Shown here one piece after another: positions 25,083-35,068 of a stretch of 64,000 bases of DNA (positions are counted from its first letter, which is position 1; the number at the start of each line of letters is the position of its first letter). Made by a program: the position numbers and the translations under genes. The notes below the pieces were generated by a model. The model saw nothing but the letters and a program-made list of their open reading frames with translations. It did not search any database and was not told the origin of the DNA. The stretch is from Escherichia phage PP01. The stretch is taken from sequence record NC_054930.1; one strand, 5' to 3'.

Positions 25083-25136
25083 TCCTCATGTTATGTCAGT
25101 AAGATTATTATAACACAACACGAGGGACTTGTAAAC
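25083..25136 (-). promoter_or_regulatory. T4-type early promoter plus leader (-35 GTTTACA, 17-bp spacer, -10 TATAAT, SD GAGGA); copy A of a 54-bp exact repeat
   Basis: Minus-strand reading GTTTACAAGTCCCTCGTGTTGTGTTATAATAATCTTACTGACATAACATGAGGA; identical to 40667-40720. Confidence 0.8.
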
Positions 25137-27193
25137 TACATTTTGAACTTTTTAGACATTCCGTTGATGTTAACCAAAGAAGCCAAGATTTGAGAAACTT
25201 CATTTTCCTCTTCTTTTGATTCTTCTACAAGGAATTGATTAAATCCAGCCATTGGACGAACTTCACCAGTTTCCATTAGATGGTCGCCATCATATACCGA
25301 TTCTTTTAATTGTTCAGAAGGAGGAACGATTGTGCCTTCGATTAAATACTTATTATAAGCAGTTTCTTTCATCATGTACGTACTCACTTTATTAATCTTC
25401 AGCAAAATTCCACGCGGTAAAATAACTTCAGCTTCTGACGGAAATCCTGATAAATGCCCTGGAACGATAACTTTGATTCGCTCAGCTCCTTTAATTACCA
25501 TACCCACGCTAGTTTCAGCATCTTCATTCGCATAAGCAGAATGACTGCCCATATGCATTAAATCTTCAGCATCAACGGAACCTTCTCCTTCACCAGAAAA
25601 TACTGCACCGGAATCATCTAGAGCCATATAGTTTTTACCATACTCACCGAAGATATTTGGTTTAAGCGATGTGGATACGAAGTTCTTGAAATAGAACATT
25701 TTATTTTCAATATTATGACGTAAAGTTTTAAAGGTAACTTCTTGTCCACGGTAAAGTGTAGTTCCTGGAGGAAGAACTGATCCTTTGGCAAAGGCAGAAT
25801 CCATTGTCTCGATGTGTTTAATAGCTCGTTCCATGTATTCTTCACGTGTAGAATCCGGTTTACCTAAAAGGAACGAGTTCATTTCAACATATGAATCTGC
25901 ACAATAATCTTCAATTACATCAGACTCAGCCTGAGTTAATCCTTTTGGAGTTACTTCAGTACTTGCATATTCATACGCTTGAGAAGCAGACTCATTAATC
26001 AATTTATAAACGCCATTCATGACAAATTGAATAATAGCTACCTTTTCATCTGGCGTGGCTTTAGAACCTTTAACTAAATCATTGACGATTTTCTTAATAA
26101 CATCAAAGCTATTAGAAATATTAATGTCAGCAAGATCGCTTAAAATTTTATCAGTTTTATAATCAAAAAATTCTTTATTCTTTAAATATTCTTGAGAACC
26201 TTGATATGTTATATCGCTCTGTAACTTGATAGATGGATCACGTAAACGTGCATGAGCCAATGCAATATGATTTCGGAAGCTTTCTAGTTCATAATCACTA
26301 GATTTAAAACGAGAAGCACTTCTCATACCACCGATAGCTCCTTTGCTGAAGTTTGAACCAACCTGAATAACGCCGGAGTTCATTGGTCCTTCTGCTTTAT
26401 ATACCGGAACTTTAGATTCAAACTCTTGGTATTTCTTAGCAGCGAAGCTATCACCCTGAAGTGAAGCATCGACGGTAGAGTATTGAGCTTGTGCTGCTAA
26501 TCGACGACTAATTTTAGTTTTCTGAATAACAGCTTGATCCGTGCGCTTATCATTTTCTAAAGCAATAGAAGCGGCAACAGCGACAGCTTTAGGAACAGCA
26601 TTACCTGTTTTAACATCTACATAAACATCACCAACCTTTGATTCAACTTTTGTGAATAACTCAGTTGAAATAGGAGGTACACCTGGAATGTCTTCTAAAT
26701 TGGCATTTTTACGGTAAACCATAATATATGCATATTTCTTATCATAGTCCCAGATTTCCTTTAAAAGAACATATCGACCTGCTCCTTTAGTACGTACTAA
26801 ACGGTCGGCAATAACTTGCATTTGACGAGCTGCGCCATTTGTTTTACTCTTTAGTACGCGGAATAAGCATGCGTCAATTTTGTACTGTTTCATTGTCTGA
26901 AGAGCAGTATCAAAAACCGCATTAATGACACCAATTGGATTTCCACCCAAGTTTTTAAGTTTAACTAATGATAGTTTCTCATTAACACCTATCATTACGA
27001 TATGCATCATTTTATCGCCTGGCTTAACGTTTTTATTCGTATCACCGCCAGAGGTGTATGTACAAAATCTAAATCCAGGAAGCACGCTTTCTTCGCCTGC
27101 TTGAATAGCAAAAATTTGAGGTATTTTATGCTTAGGATTTAAGTTAACAACCGGCGCCGAAGCGCCGTCAAATAATTCTGTAATAAGTTCCAT
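25136..27193 (-). CDS. Alt-family ADP-ribosyltransferase, paralog 1 (685 aa)
   Basis: N-terminus MELITELFD; ART signature YRGQ ... FVSTSL ... SEAEVILPRG (Arg, S-T-S, E-x-E); paralogous to the adjacent ORF. Confidence 0.88.
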   Translation of the reverse strand: MELITELFDGASAPVVNLNPKHKIPQIFAIQAGEESVLPGFRFCTYTSGGDTNKNVKPGDKMMHIVMIGVNEKLSLVKLKNLGGNPIGVINAVFDTALQTMKQYKIDACLFRVLKSKTNGAARQMQVIADRLVRTKGAGRYVLLKEIWDYDKKYAYIMVYRKNANLEDIPGVPPISTELFTKVESKVGDVYVDVKTGNAVPKAVAVAASIALENDKRTDQAVIQKTKISRRLAAQAQYSTVDASLQGDSFAAKKYQEFESKVPVYKAEGPMNSGVIQVGSNFSKGAIGGMRSASRFKSSDYELESFRNHIALAHARLRDPSIKLQSDITYQGSQEYLKNKEFFDYKTDKILSDLADINISNSFDVIKKIVNDLVKGSKATPDEKVAIIQFVMNGVYKLINESASQAYEYASTEVTPKGLTQAESDVIEDYCADSYVEMNSFLLGKPDSTREEYMERAIKHIETMDSAFAKGSVLPPGTTLYRGQEVTFKTLRHNIENKMFYFKNFVSTSLKPNIFGEYGKNYMALDDSGAVFSGEGEGSVDAEDLMHMGSHSAYANEDAETSVGMVIKGAERIKVIVPGHLSGFPSEAEVILPRGILLKINKVSTYMMKETAYNKYLIEGTIVPPSEQLKESVYDGDHLMETGEVRPMAGFNQFLVEESKEEENEVSQILASLVNINGMSKKFKM

Positions 27194-27196
27194 GAT

Positions 27197-29290
27197 TTAT
27201 CCTTGAACGAACTTGTAAGGCATGTTTGTAATATCTATGCAAGACGCAATAATTCCAAGAGATGATTCTACTTTCTGTTTAATATTTGATGAAACAAATG
27301 ATGCAAAGTCAACTCTGTCTTCTATTTCAATATCATCTGTCATTGCAACTACTTCGCCGGTTTCCATTAGACGGTCACCGTCATAAATTACTGATTCGGT
27401 GAGTTCTTCCGTAGTCATAACTTCAGCTTGAATGAGTTTTGTATTATTAGATGTTGTTCCGTCATTATTAGAAGCATCAGTTATTTTATTAACTTTGACC
27501 ATCAATCCGCGTGGTAGAATAACTTCAGCTTCTGTTGCTATTCCGAGACTTCCTGGATATACAACATTAACTTTATGAGCTCCATCAATTGCCCATCCTA
27601 TTTGAACTTTAACGTATTCAGGATTTTCTTTATACGCTCTTATTTCGTTTGGATTGATAGTTATTCCTTCTTCATTTTTATCAACTGTTAATTCATTACG
27701 AGCTTCTGGTTCTAAAAGACCTATACCAGCATGTGTAATTCCAAAACGTCCAAAAATGATAGGAGTTAAAGAAGTAGATACAAAATTTCTGAAATAGAAC
27801 ACTTTATTTTTAACTAGTGCTTCGTATATAGGAGCAGTCATGCTTTGAGCACGATAAACTGTAATGCCTTCTGGTATACGGTCACCATTTTCAAAAGCTG
27901 AATCTAAATTATTTATCGCAGATTCAATTTCTTTTTCACTCATTACATCATATCGTTCTGGATTGTAGCGGCCTAAAAGAAGATTATTGATGTCAGTATA
28001 TCCTGATCCACAATACTCTCTAATGCCGCGCTTTTGCGATGGAGTATATTTAGAACCATCACGTGCAATGGTAATATCAATCATTGGACCTGCACCAATT
28101 CCAGAAAAGCTATAAATCATTCGTTTGAGGAATTTAGTTTTTGCTGCGTTCCAGGAATTTTTAGTTATTTCTTCCCAGACTTCATCTGGCTGCCCTTTAC
28201 GAGTTTTATTATGTTTATCAAGCCAATTATCTTTATATTCTTCAAAGAATTGATTAACAGCTGCTGCGTATTTCTCTAAACATTTTATTGAAGTAGTTGG
28301 TTCATTTTTAATCGCATTAAGAATTACATCTTTAATTTTTTCAGAAACTTCATTAACCTCACTTTTTGAAAAGAATTTATAATCATAGTGAAGTTCATCT
28401 GCAGTTCCTTCAGCAATAATTTTTGCTGCCTTAGTTTTAGAAGCTAATGAATTAATTCCAAGTTTCATTTCTTCTGCTTCAGGAATTAAAGGAGCTGTAG
28501 CAGGTTTATTGAAATTAGCTGCGGTAGATTCATACTTCTGGAATAATTCACTTTCAAATCTAGAAGATTCTAATGATTGACTTTGCGCAATTGCTCTACG
28601 GGAAATTTTAACTTTAACGATTACAGCTTGGTCAGAACGTTTATCATTTTCTTGTGCAATAGAAGCAGCAATTGCCTCATTTTTAGTTACTTGAGCTCCA
28701 GTATCTTTATTAATATAAACATCGCCGACTTTCGATTCAACTTTAGTAAAGAGCTCGGTACTAATTTCCGGAACTCCTGGAATGTCTTCTAGTGATACAT
28801 TTTTGCGATGTATAAGAATATATGCATACTTTTTATCATAATCCCAGAGTTCCTTAAGAAGGACGTATCTGCCACCTGAACGACTACGGATAAGTCTATC
28901 AGCAATAACTTGAATTTGTCGAGCTTGACCAGCAGTTTTAGACTTAAGAATACGAAGCATGCAGGCATCAATTTTATACTGACGCATTGTTTGCATTGCA
29001 ATAGTAAAAACTGAATTGATATAATTAATTGGGCTTGGACCGAGACCTTTTAATTTAGCAATTGAACCTTTAGCAGTTAATGTAAAAGGAACAATATGCA
29101 TCATTTTATCGCCCATTTTTAAATCGCGATTAGTATCACCTCCAGATGTATAGGTACATAAACGAAAGCCTGGTTGTTCAATTGCGTCATCAACGTGAAC
29201 TGAAAAAATTTGTGGTATTTTCTTCTTTGGATTTAAGTTTGTAATCGGAAGAGTAGTATCTTCGTCAAATAATTCTGTAATAAGTTCCAT
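27197..29290 (-). CDS. alt: Alt-family ADP-ribosyltransferase, paralog 2 (697 aa from the second ATG), RNA polymerase ADP-ribosylase-like
   Basis: N-terminus MELITELFDEDTTLPITNLNPKKK; ART signature YRAQ ... FVSTSL ... TEAEVILPRG; GAGG RBS 6 nt before the second ATG. Confidence 0.88.
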   Translation of the reverse strand: MELITELFDEDTTLPITNLNPKKKIPQIFSVHVDDAIEQPGFRLCTYTSGGDTNRDLKMGDKMMHIVPFTLTAKGSIAKLKGLGPSPINYINSVFTIAMQTMRQYKIDACMLRILKSKTAGQARQIQVIADRLIRSRSGGRYVLLKELWDYDKKYAYILIHRKNVSLEDIPGVPEISTELFTKVESKVGDVYINKDTGAQVTKNEAIAASIAQENDKRSDQAVIVKVKISRRAIAQSQSLESSRFESELFQKYESTAANFNKPATAPLIPEAEEMKLGINSLASKTKAAKIIAEGTADELHYDYKFFSKSEVNEVSEKIKDVILNAIKNEPTTSIKCLEKYAAAVNQFFEEYKDNWLDKHNKTRKGQPDEVWEEITKNSWNAAKTKFLKRMIYSFSGIGAGPMIDITIARDGSKYTPSQKRGIREYCGSGYTDINNLLLGRYNPERYDVMSEKEIESAINNLDSAFENGDRIPEGITVYRAQSMTAPIYEALVKNKVFYFRNFVSTSLTPIIFGRFGITHAGIGLLEPEARNELTVDKNEEGITINPNEIRAYKENPEYVKVQIGWAIDGAHKVNVVYPGSLGIATEAEVILPRGLMVKVNKITDASNNDGTTSNNTKLIQAEVMTTEELTESVIYDGDRLMETGEVVAMTDDIEIEDRVDFASFVSSNIKQKVESSLGIIASCIDITNMPYKFVQG

Positions 29291-29324
29291 CATATCCTCT
29301 CTAGTGTTTATTCTATTTATAAAA

Positions 29325-29348: not shown

Positions 29349-29531
29349 ATCTAGTGGTAAGAGAGTACGGTATATTTCAAACTTTGGCCCTTTTTCATAG
29401 GCATCAAATGTTTCTGTAAATTTATTATAAGCATACGCATCTACAAATTCGAGAATGACTTGCGATACCGAAGTAGAAACATCTCCACCTTCTTTTTGAG
29501 CTATAACAATTGTTTCTAAGTAAGCTTTCAT
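29343..29531 (-). CDS. Hypothetical 62-aa protein, translationally coupled to DNA ligase (ATGA overlap)
   Basis: ATG at 29531-29529 overlaps the ligase TGA stop. Confidence 0.5.
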   Translation of the reverse strand: MKAYLETIVIAQKEGGDVSTSVSQVILEFVDAYAYNKFTETFDAYEKGPKFEIYRTLLPLDY

Positions 29532-30988
29532 AGACCAGTTACCTCATGAAAATCACCAAATACATCCTCGAATGTATTAGCTTTAGTTTTATCTTCACGT
29601 AAACGAATCGCAATCGGAAGAAATAATTTAACGTAATCAGTGCGGCCATCAGATTTTAACCAACCATTGCATTCGCACTCTAGAATTTTTCCAATATAAT
29701 AATTTTGGTTTTCCATAATGCGAGTACGGTCAAGTTCATGTGATTTTACACCGGCTTTATCTTTTAAGCCTGAACCTGCATTTACTTTAATTTTTCCACA
29801 CTCTGATTCAAGAATAAATCCACCCGCTTTAGTAGGGTCTTTACGGTGAGGATAAATTCCTACAATTTTTAAATCAACATCAATTACTTCTTTAAATTTA
29901 TAGAGATTTTTTGAACGAGCATTTTCCCACAATCCATCGGTATTTTTGAGAATAATACCTTCAAGACCTTGGTCAATATATTTTTTATAAATTACCTTAG
30001 CTTCATCTAGGTTATTTACTACCTGGTTTTCAATTAAAATTACTTTATCATATCCTGATGCCATTTGTTCTAGTTTAGAAAAACGTACATCATATTTTAA
30101 ACGAAACGCCGGAAGACCGTATATTTCTACCAACGGAACATAATCCCAGACCTGAAACTTCATGCATTTGGCTTCTTTTTCTGAAATAGTTCCCTTTAAA
30201 GATTTATTGGCGATTCCATTAGAAGCAGTACGAGATTCAGCTACTTCGGCAAACTCTTTAGCTTTACTGATTTCAGGAGCATCAAAAAGAAAATCTAGGC
30301 CTTCTGGTTCCTTTTCAACTTGCTCATGGTATACCAATTCGCCATCAATTAACACACCTTCTGGATGAATCTGGCGGGCTTCAGCAGTCATTTTGATTAA
30401 CTCTTCCTTAAGAAGATCTAATCCTAAATATTCATTACCAGCTCGCGATAAAAGACGAACATCATCTAATTCATCGCCTCGGACTTCAGCAAAACACCGA
30501 GCTCCATCAGCTTTTAACTGTGCAAAAGCTGGAAACTTGATATTCTTACTAATGCCTTTTTCATCATAAGAACTTGCAAGCATTTGAGGTTGTTCAGGAA
30601 TTAAACCTGGCCAAACTTTGTTTGCAATAGATACTGAAGCACCGCATTCAAGGTCTCGCATCATAACTCGACGCAAAACTTCAACATCATCCTTTTTACC
30701 ATCGGTGATATATCCAGTTAATTCCTCAATTGCTGCATTGCCAGTTAATTTCCGAGTAGCTAACGTGAATTCAATGAAGTCAAGCATATCGGTAATAGTC
30801 AACATTCCAAAACTCTGGGTAGCAATACCAGGTTTAGGCCATTTCTTGATATAATATTGTAACCCACGAGAATAAGTCAGACGATATACTCGTTTAAGCA
30901 ATTCATTATCTTTATTCTTTTCAAGAATTGCTTGCTTCTGTTTAGTTGATCCAATAGATGCTATTTCATTCAGAATTTTAAGAATCAT
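29528..30988 (-). CDS. 30: ATP-dependent DNA ligase gp30
   Basis: 486 aa; adenylation motif KADGAR; N-terminus MILKILNEIASIGSTKQKQ. Confidence 0.97.
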   Translation of the reverse strand: MILKILNEIASIGSTKQKQAILEKNKDNELLKRVYRLTYSRGLQYYIKKWPKPGIATQSFGMLTITDMLDFIEFTLATRKLTGNAAIEELTGYITDGKKDDVEVLRRVMMRDLECGASVSIANKVWPGLIPEQPQMLASSYDEKGISKNIKFPAFAQLKADGARCFAEVRGDELDDVRLLSRAGNEYLGLDLLKEELIKMTAEARQIHPEGVLIDGELVYHEQVEKEPEGLDFLFDAPEISKAKEFAEVAESRTASNGIANKSLKGTISEKEAKCMKFQVWDYVPLVEIYGLPAFRLKYDVRFSKLEQMASGYDKVILIENQVVNNLDEAKVIYKKYIDQGLEGIILKNTDGLWENARSKNLYKFKEVIDVDLKIVGIYPHRKDPTKAGGFILESECGKIKVNAGSGLKDKAGVKSHELDRTRIMENQNYYIGKILECECNGWLKSDGRTDYVKLFLPIAIRLREDKTKANTFEDVFGDFHEVTGL

Positions 30989-31254
30989 TGCTCATCCTTC
31001 AAGGTTTGGTTTACAGCTCTATTATAAATCAATTCATCATTAAGCTCAGGCAAAGACTTATGATATGTAGTTCTAACTTTATTTCCTTGCATCCAGTGCT
31101 TGACGTAAATGAAACCTTGCTCTACACATTTTTTAAAAATTCGTTCGTCTTTTTGAGCTCGGAATTCTGGATTGCATCTAAAAAATTGATTTACGTGACC
31201 GTAATCACGTGTAGTATTACCTTCATTTTCATAAATAGTGTGAACGACAAACAT
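30985..31254 (-). CDS. 30.1: Hypothetical protein (T4 30.1 position)
   Basis: 89 aa; synteny. Confidence 0.7.
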   Translation of the reverse strand: MFVVHTIYENEGNTTRDYGHVNQFFRCNPEFRAQKDERIFKKCVEQGFIYVKHWMQGNKVRTTYHKSLPELNDELIYNRAVNQTLKDEQ

Positions 31255-32093
31255 TAGAATGCTCCTTGAAAAATATTATCACCACTAGTAGGTCTATTAT
31301 ACAAATACTCTATGCCACCAGGTTTAATATAGTTCCATGTCTGAAACGGATGTGTCTGATATGGATGATATGGATGATTATAAGGATTAAATCCAGGCGT
31401 TCTCCAGGTAGTGTTCCAAGGAAAAGAATCGTTTTTAACCATCTTCTCAATTACATCTTTTATAGCTTTTTCACTATCAAAACTTTCTTTATTTTCCTTT
31501 GGTGAAAAAAGCTTATTTTCTACATCATTCCATGTATAAACTCGCTGCGCAGTTTTTGGAATATTGTCACGCTCTCCTCGAGCCATCCAATAAACTGGAA
31601 CATTTAATATTTCACTCGCATGATCGCAGTGATGAGCGAGATCGTCAATATAACAAATTACGTTATATTTCTCTTTTGCCTTTTTGAACAGCTCTTCTTT
31701 TGAAGAATCATGACCACACATCATTACTTCTGAGAAGGCACCGGGAAAAAGAGCATTCAAATTAAATTGACGATTCAACAGAGCGTCAATAGAATCACCC
31801 AATGCTGTAACAGCTACAAAATTATAATCTTCCTTTAATTTGTTAATTACACACAGGGCATCTTTATACGGAGACAAGTAACGAATAAAATCTGAACGAT
31901 TGTATTTTTCAATTAACTTGACGCCAAGTTCTTCGTCACAATTAAAGAGTTTACCTGGAGAAATAAATTTCTCATCTTGGATCATTTTTAAAATATGTTC
32001 TAATGGAAGATTATATTTCTGAGCAAAATAAGGAAGGCCTGATTGCCAGCTTAAACATACTCCATCAATATCAGTCAAAATAGTTGGCTTCAT
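31254..32093 (-). CDS. 30.2: HAD-superfamily hydrolase-like protein (T4 30.2 position)
   Basis: 279 aa; N-terminal DIDGV (DxDG[T/V]) motif. Confidence 0.75.
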   Translation of the reverse strand: MKPTILTDIDGVCLSWQSGLPYFAQKYNLPLEHILKMIQDEKFISPGKLFNCDEELGVKLIEKYNRSDFIRYLSPYKDALCVINKLKEDYNFVAVTALGDSIDALLNRQFNLNALFPGAFSEVMMCGHDSSKEELFKKAKEKYNVICYIDDLAHHCDHASEILNVPVYWMARGERDNIPKTAQRVYTWNDVENKLFSPKENKESFDSEKAIKDVIEKMVKNDSFPWNTTWRTPGFNPYNHPYHPYQTHPFQTWNYIKPGGIEYLYNRPTSGDNIFQGAF

Positions 32094-32548
32094 AGAGAGT
32101 CTCTTAATAGATTTAACACATCAATAAATTCAGCTTCGGTTAGTATTGTATCATCTTTTGTTAGACCACTAGCCATGCTGTGCTTCAAAACTTTTCCTTT
32201 CGAGGCTTGTAATGCATCACGAAAGCCCCTGTTTTGGATCGCTGCTTCAAAATATGCATTTGTGTATAATTCTTTCCACGCTGGAGAGTATCTTGAAAAC
32301 GGAACTCCAAGCCAGAACAACGTGCCACGGTCCTGAGCTCTAGCATAAGCTCGTCCAGCTTTTTGCGCGTCCAACCCAGACATCCCAAATATACGACGTT
32401 GTTGTTCAACATTTTTCACCTTACATCCCTGGAGAAATCCTTCGAGACCTCCAAATTGGATACCATTCATAACGAAAGGCCATTGGGCGAAATTGCTTAA
32501 TGCACATGATGGCCATCTAAAATTGCTTCTAATCTCTAACTCAGACAT
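32090..32548 (-). CDS. 30.3: NADAR/YbiA-family protein (T4 30.3 position)
   Basis: 152 aa; LSNFAQWPF motif resembling FSNFAxWP of E. coli YbiA. Confidence 0.8.
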   Translation of the reverse strand: MSELEIRSNFRWPSCALSNFAQWPFVMNGIQFGGLEGFLQGCKVKNVEQQRRIFGMSGLDAQKAGRAYARAQDRGTLFWLGVPFSRYSPAWKELYTNAYFEAAIQNRGFRDALQASKGKVLKHSMASGLTKDDTILTEAEFIDVLNLLRDSL

Positions 32549-32756
32549 CTTTAATACTTATAATTTCAATATCAGCCCAATGACCGTAACCTGGTAGACG
32601 GTCCTCAATGGATAATCCGCCATCATATTTAAGCATTTTAATTGTCATAATATATGGCTCTAAATGGTCTTCTGTGAGAGGAGAAACGTCAGTCACACGA
32701 TAAGTAACTTCAACCATTTCCGTACCTAATAATTTCTGAATTAATTTCTTAAACAT
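32541..32756 (-). CDS. Hypothetical protein (T4 30.3' position)
   Basis: 71 aa ORF. Confidence 0.6.
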   Translation of the reverse strand: MFKKLIQKLLGTEMVEVTYRVTDVSPLTEDHLEPYIMTIKMLKYDGGLSIEDRLPGYGHWADIEIISIKDV

Positions 32757-32760
32757 TTTA

Positions 32761-33048
32761 TTAGAACCTCATCTGAAAACCATGCGATTTAACATTACCG
32801 CCGCCAATATCAGAAATGTTAATTTCACGCGCAATTGAAGGGTCAATATCAATTTCACGATTGAGTTTAGTAATAGCTAAAGTATCACGGCCATTTACAG
32901 TACGGAACTCTAAAGGGCAGACTACATTAACGTAGTTTTTAATCGATTCACTGGTAGGTTGCAAATGAGCAGGAAGGTCTTTAGGCGCCTTAGAGAAAAC
33001 TACTTCACAGAAATTTTTGCGGGTATCAAAATAAGTAGTCATAAACAT
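32761..33048 (-). CDS. Hypothetical protein (T4 30.4 position)
   Basis: 95 aa ORF. Confidence 0.6.
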   Translation of the reverse strand: MFMTTYFDTRKNFCEVVFSKAPKDLPAHLQPTSESIKNYVNVVCPLEFRTVNGRDTLAITKLNREIDIDPSIAREINISDIGGGNVKSHGFQMRF

Positions 33049-33089: not shown

Positions 33090-33467
33090 TTAAATGTCAA
33101 ATTCGTTAAGAACTACATCAAAGATTGCTTCAAGATGCTCAGGTTTAGCTCTGTTACTCAGAATATGACGAATCCAAGTTTTAACCAGAAGCTTGCGATT
33201 AACGCCATTCCAACAAGGATGAGTACCTAAATCACGTTGACGGAAATCATCATCTAATGCGATTTTAAAGGAAGAACCTTCTTTCGTGATTGAAACCGTG
33301 ATGCCATTTTCAAATCGCATATAAACGTAGTTAGGAGTCATATACTGTTCAATTTCGCATACTGATCCATTTTGATGTTTCCAAAGGCAAATAGTATCAA
33401 TAGAACCTGCAATACCGTTAGAAACATATTTACGTTCAAAGTTGATGTAGTTCATTTTATTCTCCAA
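33090..33467 (-). CDS. Hypothetical protein (T4 30.5 position)
   Basis: 125 aa; an early-type promoter (GTTTACT..TATTAT) lies upstream at about 33480-33525. Confidence 0.65.
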   Translation of the reverse strand: MENKMNYINFERKYVSNGIAGSIDTICLWKHQNGSVCEIEQYMTPNYVYMRFENGITVSITKEGSSFKIALDDDFRQRDLGTHPCWNGVNRKLLVKTWIRHILSNRAKPEHLEAIFDVVLNEFDI

Positions 33468-33522: not shown

Positions 33523-33855
33523 TTATTTTACTAATTTCCAATGCTTCATGTCAAGTTTGCCAACTTTTTTCATCTTCTCAATTAAGCGTTCGGCACGTTG
33601 GCGAGCTGTAACATAATACCATTCACCTAATTCATTTTGTTCAATTTTTCCAACGATTACTGTATTCAATTCATAAATCCAACCAGTAAAGAAATTATGA
33701 ACTTGAATTGTAAAGGTGAAATCTGTTCCCATACCTTCTGTTGTTTCTACTTCAACAATATCACCTTCAACTGCCATTAAGAACCACATAGTTTCATCAT
33801 ATTTACCATTGAAGCATTTAGTTTTAACCGCAGCGTTCAGATTAATCGTTTTCAT
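33523..33855 (-). CDS. Hypothetical protein (T4 30.6 position)
   Basis: 110 aa; an early-type promoter (GTTTACA, 17 bp, TAGTAT) lies upstream at about 33870-33915. Confidence 0.65.
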   Translation of the reverse strand: MKTINLNAAVKTKCFNGKYDETMWFLMAVEGDIVEVETTEGMGTDFTFTIQVHNFFTGWIYELNTVIVGKIEQNELGEWYYVTARQRAERLIEKMKKVGKLDMKHWKLVK

Positions 33856-33943
33856 TTTATTCTCCTTTGTTTGTGTAAGATAATACTATCACAAAGGAAC
33901 CATACTGTAAACAACTTTGTGCAATCTTTGGAAAATAAAAAAG

Positions 33944-33961
33944 GACTCCCGAAGGAGTCCT
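33944..33961 (-). terminator. Hairpin GGACUCC-UUCG-GGAGUCC (minus-strand reading)
   Basis: 7-bp inverted repeat. Confidence 0.45.
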
Positions 33962-33965
33962 CAAC

Positions 33966-34336: not shown

Positions 34337-34585
34337 TTACTTCAGTGTTACCACAAAGTGACGAACTGCTTTTCGTGCAGCAGAAGCCAGAGGCTTAGCA
34401 TACTTAAGTTCATCTTTTTCCTGGAGCTCAGCAGCTAATGCGGTTTGAGCAGGATTCAGATGTTTGAAATAACGCAGGATTTCAAGAGCTTCGGCTTCAA
34501 CATCAATAGATGCGCCATAGTTTTCGTGACCATTATTCCATGCGTTTCGTTGCAGTTCAAGAGCGTGTTGTAATTGTTTAATCAT
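34337..34585 (-). CDS. rIII: rIII lysis-inhibition accessory protein
   Basis: 82 aa; synteny upstream of gene 31. Confidence 0.8.
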   Translation of the reverse strand: MIKQLQHALELQRNAWNNGHENYGASIDVEAEALEILRYFKHLNPAQTALAAELQEKDELKYAKPLASAARKAVRHFVVTLK

Positions 34586-34732: not shown

Positions 34733-35068
34733 TCACTTATAAAGACACGGAATAGCTTTATAGTGACAAGTAACGAATTTTTGTTTAATTTCTTTTGGCT
34801 GCTTAAGACCCAGAGCTACAAAAGGATGCGGAACGTTTCGAATTTGACCAACTGGAAGAGAAGTCAAATCACCAACTTCGCAGAAACCTTCAGGAACATC
34901 AGGACCAACAGAGTGAACTACACACAGTTCAGGAACTTCACCTTGAACACGTTTACCGATAATGAGTCCTGATTCTGTAACTTCTTCATCACCAGCTTGC
35001 GCAGGTTCAGAAACTAAAATAACATATTCACCGACAGCACGAATTGGTAGCTGTTGTACTTCAGACAT
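34733..35068 (-). CDS. 31: Co-chaperonin gp31 (GroES-like, for gp23 folding)
   Basis: 111 aa; N-terminus [21 protein letters not shown]. Confidence 0.95.

Follow-up and report, generated by a model that had tools for sequence, protein, structure and literature searches.

A highly probable orthologue of the T4 anti-DarT gene adfN (30.3), encoding a phage-type NADAR protein, in Escherichia phage PP01

The DNA analysed here, referred to as the window, is a stretch of 64,000 nucleotides from Escherichia phage PP01 (NC_054930.1). At positions 32090..32548, on the minus strand, it carries the coding sequence of gene 30.3 (adfN), which begins with ATG, specifies 152 amino acids followed by a TGA stop and encodes an extension-free NADAR domain of the phage type. 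A sequence-only reading of the window had already drawn attention to this 152-residue frame because of the motif LSNFAQWPF, and the list of open reading frames bears this out, with the motif at residues 17-25 of the minus-strand ORF. The encoded protein matches the Pfam family PF08010 (Phage_30_3, 'Bacteriophage protein GP30.3') with 230.1 bits (E=9e-69) over profile positions 1-138 of 138, the gathering cut-off being 36 bits. In addition, third codon positions hold 21 of the 30 nucleotide differences between the window gene and the T4 gene. Because of both the strength of the PF08010 match and this third-position excess, the frame can be taken as a real gene rather than a chance ORF.

Several features within the gene bear on its function, all of them on the minus strand. 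The codons for LSNFAQWPF, the N-terminal NADAR motif recognized in the family alignment and in the alignment with YbiA, lie at 32474..32500. Reading the codons from the sequence places the catalytic glutamate E36 (GAA) at 32441..32443 and K43 (AAG), a catalytic or ADP-ribose-contacting lysine, at 32420..32422. H123 (CAC), the last-strand histidine by which the phage NADAR subfamily is recognized, is encoded at 32180..32182. The C-terminal helix (residues 138-152, with a helix predicted for 138-151) is encoded at 32093..32137 and is intact in the window allele. The gene is tightly packed between its neighbours. According to the ORF coordinates, it shares its first 8 bases with the end of 30.4 (32541..32548), and its TGA stop shares the sequence ATGA with the ATG start of 30.2 (32090..32093); both overlaps are annotated likewise in T4. 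We infer that the ATGA overlap may couple translation of 30.2 to that of adfN. As to naming, about 730 phage records carry adfN, nearly all of them as 'hypothetical protein', and the NADAR label appears in just one record among the matches listed.

The sequence-only reading had placed the ORF in the 30.x cluster, close to ADP-ribosyltransferase genes, and the gene order agrees on both counts. On one side of adfN are 30.2 (31254-32093, minus strand, 279 aa), 30.1 (30985-31254, DUF3045) and the DNA ligase gene (29528-30988, PF01068). On the other side are 30.4 (32541-32756, minus strand, 71 aa), 30.6 (32761-33048, minus strand), 30.7 (33090-33467, PF06919) and 30.8 (33523-33855, PF06019), followed by rIII (34337-34585) and gene 31 (34733-35068, Cpn10). 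Two full-length Alt-like ADP-ribosyltransferase genes (PF03496) stand in tandem on the minus strand at 25136-27193 and 27197-29293, about 2.8 kb from adfN, with ligase, 30.1 and 30.2 in between. The order rIII, 30.8, 30.7, 30.6, 30.4, 30.3, 30.2, 30.1, ligase, alt is the same in the window and in the T4 annotation, and the 2.3 kb around adfN is 95-97% identical to many Tequatrovirus genomes.

The surroundings also show some local differences from T4. The 698-aa Alt-like protein has 70% identity to T4 Alt, being near-identical over approximately the first 250 residues and the C-terminal ~100 residues and diverged in the middle, where the catalytic domain resides. The 685-aa Alt-like protein has just 42% identity to T4 Alt and likewise 42% to its tandem neighbour. 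T4 carries no more than the short remnants alt.-1 and alt.-2 at the second Alt-like position, and phage pSe_SNUABM_01 also has one full alt gene. Identity between the window 30.4 product and T4 gp30.4 is only 49%, and the T4 gene 30.5 is absent from the window, so that 30.4 is directly followed by 30.6 (32541-33048); pSe_SNUABM_01 is annotated with the same layout.

A consensus scan revealed a possible sigma-70-type early promoter upstream of 30.7 (33525..33554, minus strand; TTGACA, an 18-base spacer and TAAAAT, 11 of 12 matches). As a lead, this candidate could drive 30.7-30.6-30.4-adfN-30.2-30.1-ligase, bearing in mind that the number of promoter-like sites found in the region by the consensus scan is not above the shuffled expectation. 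A strong terminator-like hairpin, a consensus match with 9 pairs followed by a T-run, is present upstream of 30.8 (33941-33962, minus strand), and the two elements together could bound the adfN transcription unit. Within 30.3 itself, T4 annotation includes an internal frame, 30.3', which is open in the window at 32185-32412 on the minus strand. This frame shows 79% identity to T4, compared with 95% in the main frame, and its JS10 counterpart contains an in-frame stop. We therefore think that 30.3' is probably not a conserved coding sequence, and in any case it has no bearing on the adfN finding.

The assignment of the window protein to the NADAR/YbiA family, made in the sequence-only reading from the motif, turned out to be right at the level of the superfamily and not at the level of a direct match to the NADAR profile. 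That reading had proposed a search against the NADAR profile as the check and the lack of a match as grounds for rejection. The direct Pfam scan of the window protein yielded no match to NADAR (PF08719) at E<=1, a single-sequence phmmer search of gp30.3 against PDB returned noise only, and NCBIfam and PADLOC scans gave no matches. The picture is different at the level of the family. A database search identified 98 homologues, every one of them with PF08010; several of these, from JGI, bear the name 'YbiA (DUF1768 family)'. When the 53 full-length members making up our family alignment were considered individually, 25 matched PF08719 (best E=1.5e-7). The family profile has a sole match in PDB, E. 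coli YbiA (2b3w, E=0.0017), which covers the motif region; in this profile alignment the LSNFAQWPF stretch pairs with FSNFAAWP of YbiA (LSNFA with FSNFA), and the downstream E and K also line up. Residues L17, S18, N19, F20 and F25 are invariant in the 53-member alignment. Of the two conserved catalytic residues in the region of the first core helix, Glu (E36, T4 numbering) is found in all 53 members and Lys (K43) in 51 of them; H123 occurs in all 53, and the window protein has kept all three.

Structure prediction leads to the same superfamily. The AlphaFold2 model built on the 53-sequence alignment (mean pLDDT 91.6, pTM 0.86) matches only NADAR structures, the top three in a Foldseek search against PDB being YbiA (2b3w), Phytophthora NADAR (8bau) and Geobacter lovleyi NADAR (8bat). 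The best of these, YbiA, was matched with E=1e-4 and a TM score of 0.70. In the model, H123 ends the predicted strand 120-123, which is the last beta-strand. The residue in this strand is reported to be His in phage NADARs, Glu in YbiA-type and Asp in DarG1-type proteins (PMC11543638, PMC11125620). Taken together, the family-level sequence matches and the predicted fold confirm that the window protein belongs to the NADAR superfamily (YbiA fold), the sequence link being transitive; its place is in the superfamily and in PF08010, not in PF08719. Since both the homologues and the fold link PF08010 with PF08719, the negative PF08719 scan does not refute the NADAR reading, and rejection on that ground would be wrong. 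It reflects the splitting of the superfamily in Pfam, not missing homology. The methodological lesson is that a direct test against the 'NADAR profile' produces a false negative, Pfam modelling the phage subfamily separately.

The closest characterized relative is T4 gp30.3, to which the window protein is 95% identical over all 152 residues with no gaps. The two share the same neighbours, the same overlapping start and stop codons, E36, K43, H123 and the C-terminal helix. They differ by seven substitutions, N28D, M56L, D60A, K63Q, A67S, R107K and M125I (window residue, position, T4 residue). Position 28 is the only one of these sites that is well conserved in the family: where the window has N, 48 of the 53 members have D and four others have R or E. 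The site falls in the beta-hairpin turn between strands 25-27 and 30-32 predicted in the AlphaFold model. Given this location and the variation seen among family members, we judge N28 unlikely to be an inactivating change.

The role of the T4 gene has been established in considerable detail. Johannesman et al. (Nat Commun 2025, PMC11825919) traced the DarTG1 resistance of T-even phages to gene 30.3, for which they introduced the name adfN (anti-DarT factor NADAR). The product is a DNA ADP-ribosylglycohydrolase with specificity for guanine, both necessary and sufficient for T-even phages to resist DarTG1 (PMC11825919; PMC11125620). T4 and T2 without adfN form no plaques on DarTG1 hosts, and the purified enzyme strips ADP-ribose from DarT1-modified DNA, whereas the E36A variant is inactive (PMC11825919). 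Phage RB69 is sensitive to DarTG1 and has its own copy, which has lost the last 15 residues through a frameshift; RB69 plaquing on DarTG1 hosts is restored by adfN in trans (PMC11825919). This rescue is weakened by E36A, by K43A and by C-terminal truncation of the T4 protein, E36A losing most of it, and the T4 protein truncated at the RB69 point has reduced activity (PMC11825919). Binding of AdfN to DarT1 was not seen in a two-hybrid assay, and the thymidine-modifying DarTG2 is unaffected by AdfN (PMC11825919). In agreement with the latter, T4 gp30.3 hydrolyses guanine-ADPr in vitro and not thymidine-ADPr (Toxins 2024, PMC11125620). The gene is dispensable in the absence of DarTG1, with no fitness defect there (PMC11825919; bioRxiv 10.1101/2025.11.20.689424); in HIDEN-SEQ transposon sequencing, 30.3/adfN insertions are tolerated on K-12 and lost only with DarTG1 (bioRxiv 10.1101/2025.11.20.689424).

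Based on these data, the window ORF is very probably the orthologue of T4 30.3/adfN, a NADAR glycohydrolase that reverses guanine ADP-ribosylation of phage DNA by DarT1. The counter-defence role against DarT-type toxins, raised as a possibility in the sequence-only reading, is thus supported by the published work on the 95%-identical T4 enzyme. The events would be as follows. Once a T4-like phage infects a DarTG1 cell, the DarT1 toxin would attach ADP-ribose to guanines of the phage DNA, which would block phage replication. The phage-made AdfN, a minimal NADAR-fold glycohydrolase consisting of the core only, would then cut the bond between ADP-ribose and guanine, returning the DNA to its unmodified state and allowing replication to go on. 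In other words, AdfN would act on the modified DNA and not by binding the toxin, and it would offer no protection against DarTG2, which modifies thymidine. The window allele keeps all the features known to matter, namely full length, the C-terminal helix, E36, K43 and H123. With 95% identity to the T4 protein and seven substitutions, including N28 in place of D28, we infer that it is likely to be active. Consequently, judging by its intact adfN (full length, E36, K43 and H123), the window phage would be predicted to plate on DarTG1 hosts. It should be pointed out that the function of this gene family is already known, as its fold, enzymology and anti-DarTG1 role were published in 2023-2025, and our identification is no new discovery; its practical value lies in annotation and prediction.

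Comparison with other NADARs helps to delimit what kind of enzyme this is. DarG1, represented by the Geobacter lovleyi NADAR (PDB 8bat) and the E. coli C7 NADAR, is an antitoxin linked to DarT1, whereas the window NADAR is an orphan with no adjacent DarT gene: its neighbours are 30.4 and 30.2, and PADLOC finds neither gp30.3 nor gp30.2. DarG1 has an N-terminal helix and beta-sheet extension that forms a DNA channel (PMC12945103), but the window protein comprises the core domain only, and the last-strand residue is Asp in the former and His in the latter. Moreover, in uninfected cells the T4 protein is unable to stand in for DarG1 (PMC11825919; PMC11125620). The relationship to E. coli YbiA (PDB 2b3w) is distant, about 16-20% identity, with Glu in the last strand as opposed to His in the window protein. 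YbiA is chromosomal, belongs to a LexA-controlled operon and has been connected with riboflavin intermediates and swarming motility, not with phage counter-defence (PMC11125620, PMC11543638). Further counterparts are AdfN(Bas32) and AdfN(Bas60) of T5-like and Vequintavirinae phages, which are likewise phage-encoded, anti-DarTG1 and specific for guanine-ADPr, yet represent other NADAR branches acquired independently (PMC11825919). Unlike the T4-type protein, these two are effective in uninfected cells and also help unrelated phages (PMC11825919).

There is a possibility that the range of AdfN is wider than DarT1 products and includes guanine-ADPr in RNA, or DNA marked by further guanine-directed ADP-ribosyltransferases (pierisin/ScARP-like or YarT-like toxins). 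The T4 NADAR does clear ScARP-made guanine-ADPr from DNA in vitro (PMC11125620), and it removes guanine-ADPr from RNA, although less efficiently than the E. coli C7 NADAR (PMC11833690; PMC12945103). However, these wider activities have been seen in vitro only, no further defence system is known to depend on AdfN, and a summary table in PMC12945103, which credits the NADAR and YbiA families with reversal of cytidine-ADPr, does not list it for the phage NADAR. We therefore consider a broader range unlikely, and equally so that DarTG1 is just one of several defences countered; either would add to the main explanation and be compatible with it.

A different question is whether AdfN works alone. 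The T4 protein fails to rescue uninfected E. coli from DarT1 (PMC11825919; PMC11125620), and T4-type AdfN barely rescues non-T-even phages such as T5 and Bas25 (PMC11825919). The authors of that study suggest that T4-type AdfN may need some T-even factor (PMC11825919). Thus, the one-enzyme picture is incomplete even for T4. It might be speculated that the missing factor is a phage-encoded partner and, specifically, gp30.2 (31254-32093). This would fit the overlap of the 30.2 start codon with the adfN stop (ATGA), and in tblastn searches 30.2 adjoins the NADAR gene at all the T-even-like loci covered (T4, pSe_SNUABM_01, JS10, L010 and L011), which include a metagenomic relative of 57-58% identity. 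On the other hand, tblastn did not find 30.2 at five distant phage loci with PF08010 members. Its absence there weakens the partner reading, as the adjacency may be mere inherited synteny; being confined to T-even-like loci, it has the pattern expected of plain synteny and provides no evidence for a linkage of 30.2 and adfN beyond that. All in all, a requirement for gp30.2 seems very unlikely. As for gp30.2 itself, the 279-aa protein has an N-terminal MKPTILTDIDGV stretch with a HAD-phosphatase-like DxD motif (DIDG) and a C-terminal tail rich in Pro, His, Tyr and Asn. Sequence searches against Pfam, NCBIfam, PADLOC and PDB returned nothing for it. Its PHROG matches are to PHROG 420 (unknown function) and, at a weak level, to a polynucleotide kinase PHROG, and some GenBank records label it 'phosphatase'. 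The JS10 protein is shorter, 212 aa.

The sequence-only reading had also raised the idea of a link to the phage's own Alt/Mod chemistry. The enzyme might, for example, reverse or edit marks made by Alt, ModA or ModB, in which case the proximity to alt would be a functional link. The two Alt-like genes about 2.8 kb away agree with this idea, as does a more distant T4-like contig that also has NADAR, 30.2, 30.1 and ligase followed by Alt. Nonetheless, the adjacency is ordinary T-even synteny with the ligase gene in between, and no Alt-like gene is found near the more distant phage PF08010 members. The chemistry does not fit either. Alt and Mod enzymes act on arginines in proteins, and, to our knowledge, all NADARs tested act on base-linked ADP-ribose. 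The guanine specificity of the T4 enzyme, its dispensability on E. coli K-12, where adfN becomes essential only with DarTG1, and the lack of protection against DarTG2 leave the proposed link to Alt/Mod chemistry without support, and we regard it as highly improbable. Finally, a YbiA-like metabolic N-glycosidase that clears, for example, reactive riboflavin-pathway intermediates and has no part in DNA repair or counter-defence is hardly credible: YbiA is the best Foldseek match and the sole PDB match of the family profile, and literature cited in PMC11543638 assigns it a riboflavin-intermediate role, but the Glu of the last strand that defines the YbiA subfamily is replaced by His, no metabolic phenotype has been reported, and the T4 orthologue counters DarTG1 directly and specifically and removes ADP-ribose from DNA (PMC11825919).

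Natural broken adfN alleles occur in T4-like phages and metagenomes (P0013, P0014, P0015, P0020 and P0034). In some, a deletion has fused N-terminal sequence of gp30.7 or gp30.8 with the C-terminal half of gp30.3, so that E36 and K43 are lost; another is truncated after residue 82, and in yet another a frameshift connects the 30.3' frame with the 30.3 frame. By analogy with RB69, carriers of such truncated or deleted alleles are predicted to be sensitive to DarTG1.

Distant PF08010 members with 35-43% identity are present in large uncultivated phage contigs (L002, from ena:ERZ27264626 k141_295037, L005, L007, L012 and L013). None of these five contigs has the T-even gene order, which indicates that the phage NADAR subfamily extends beyond Tevenvirinae. 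One distant member, P0025, is 201 aa long. The surroundings vary from contig to contig: genes for PRPP synthetase and a GGDEF protein are near the NADAR gene in L002, DNA ligase and a weak T5 dNMPase-like match in L005, an HD-domain protein in L012, and RNA ligases in L013.
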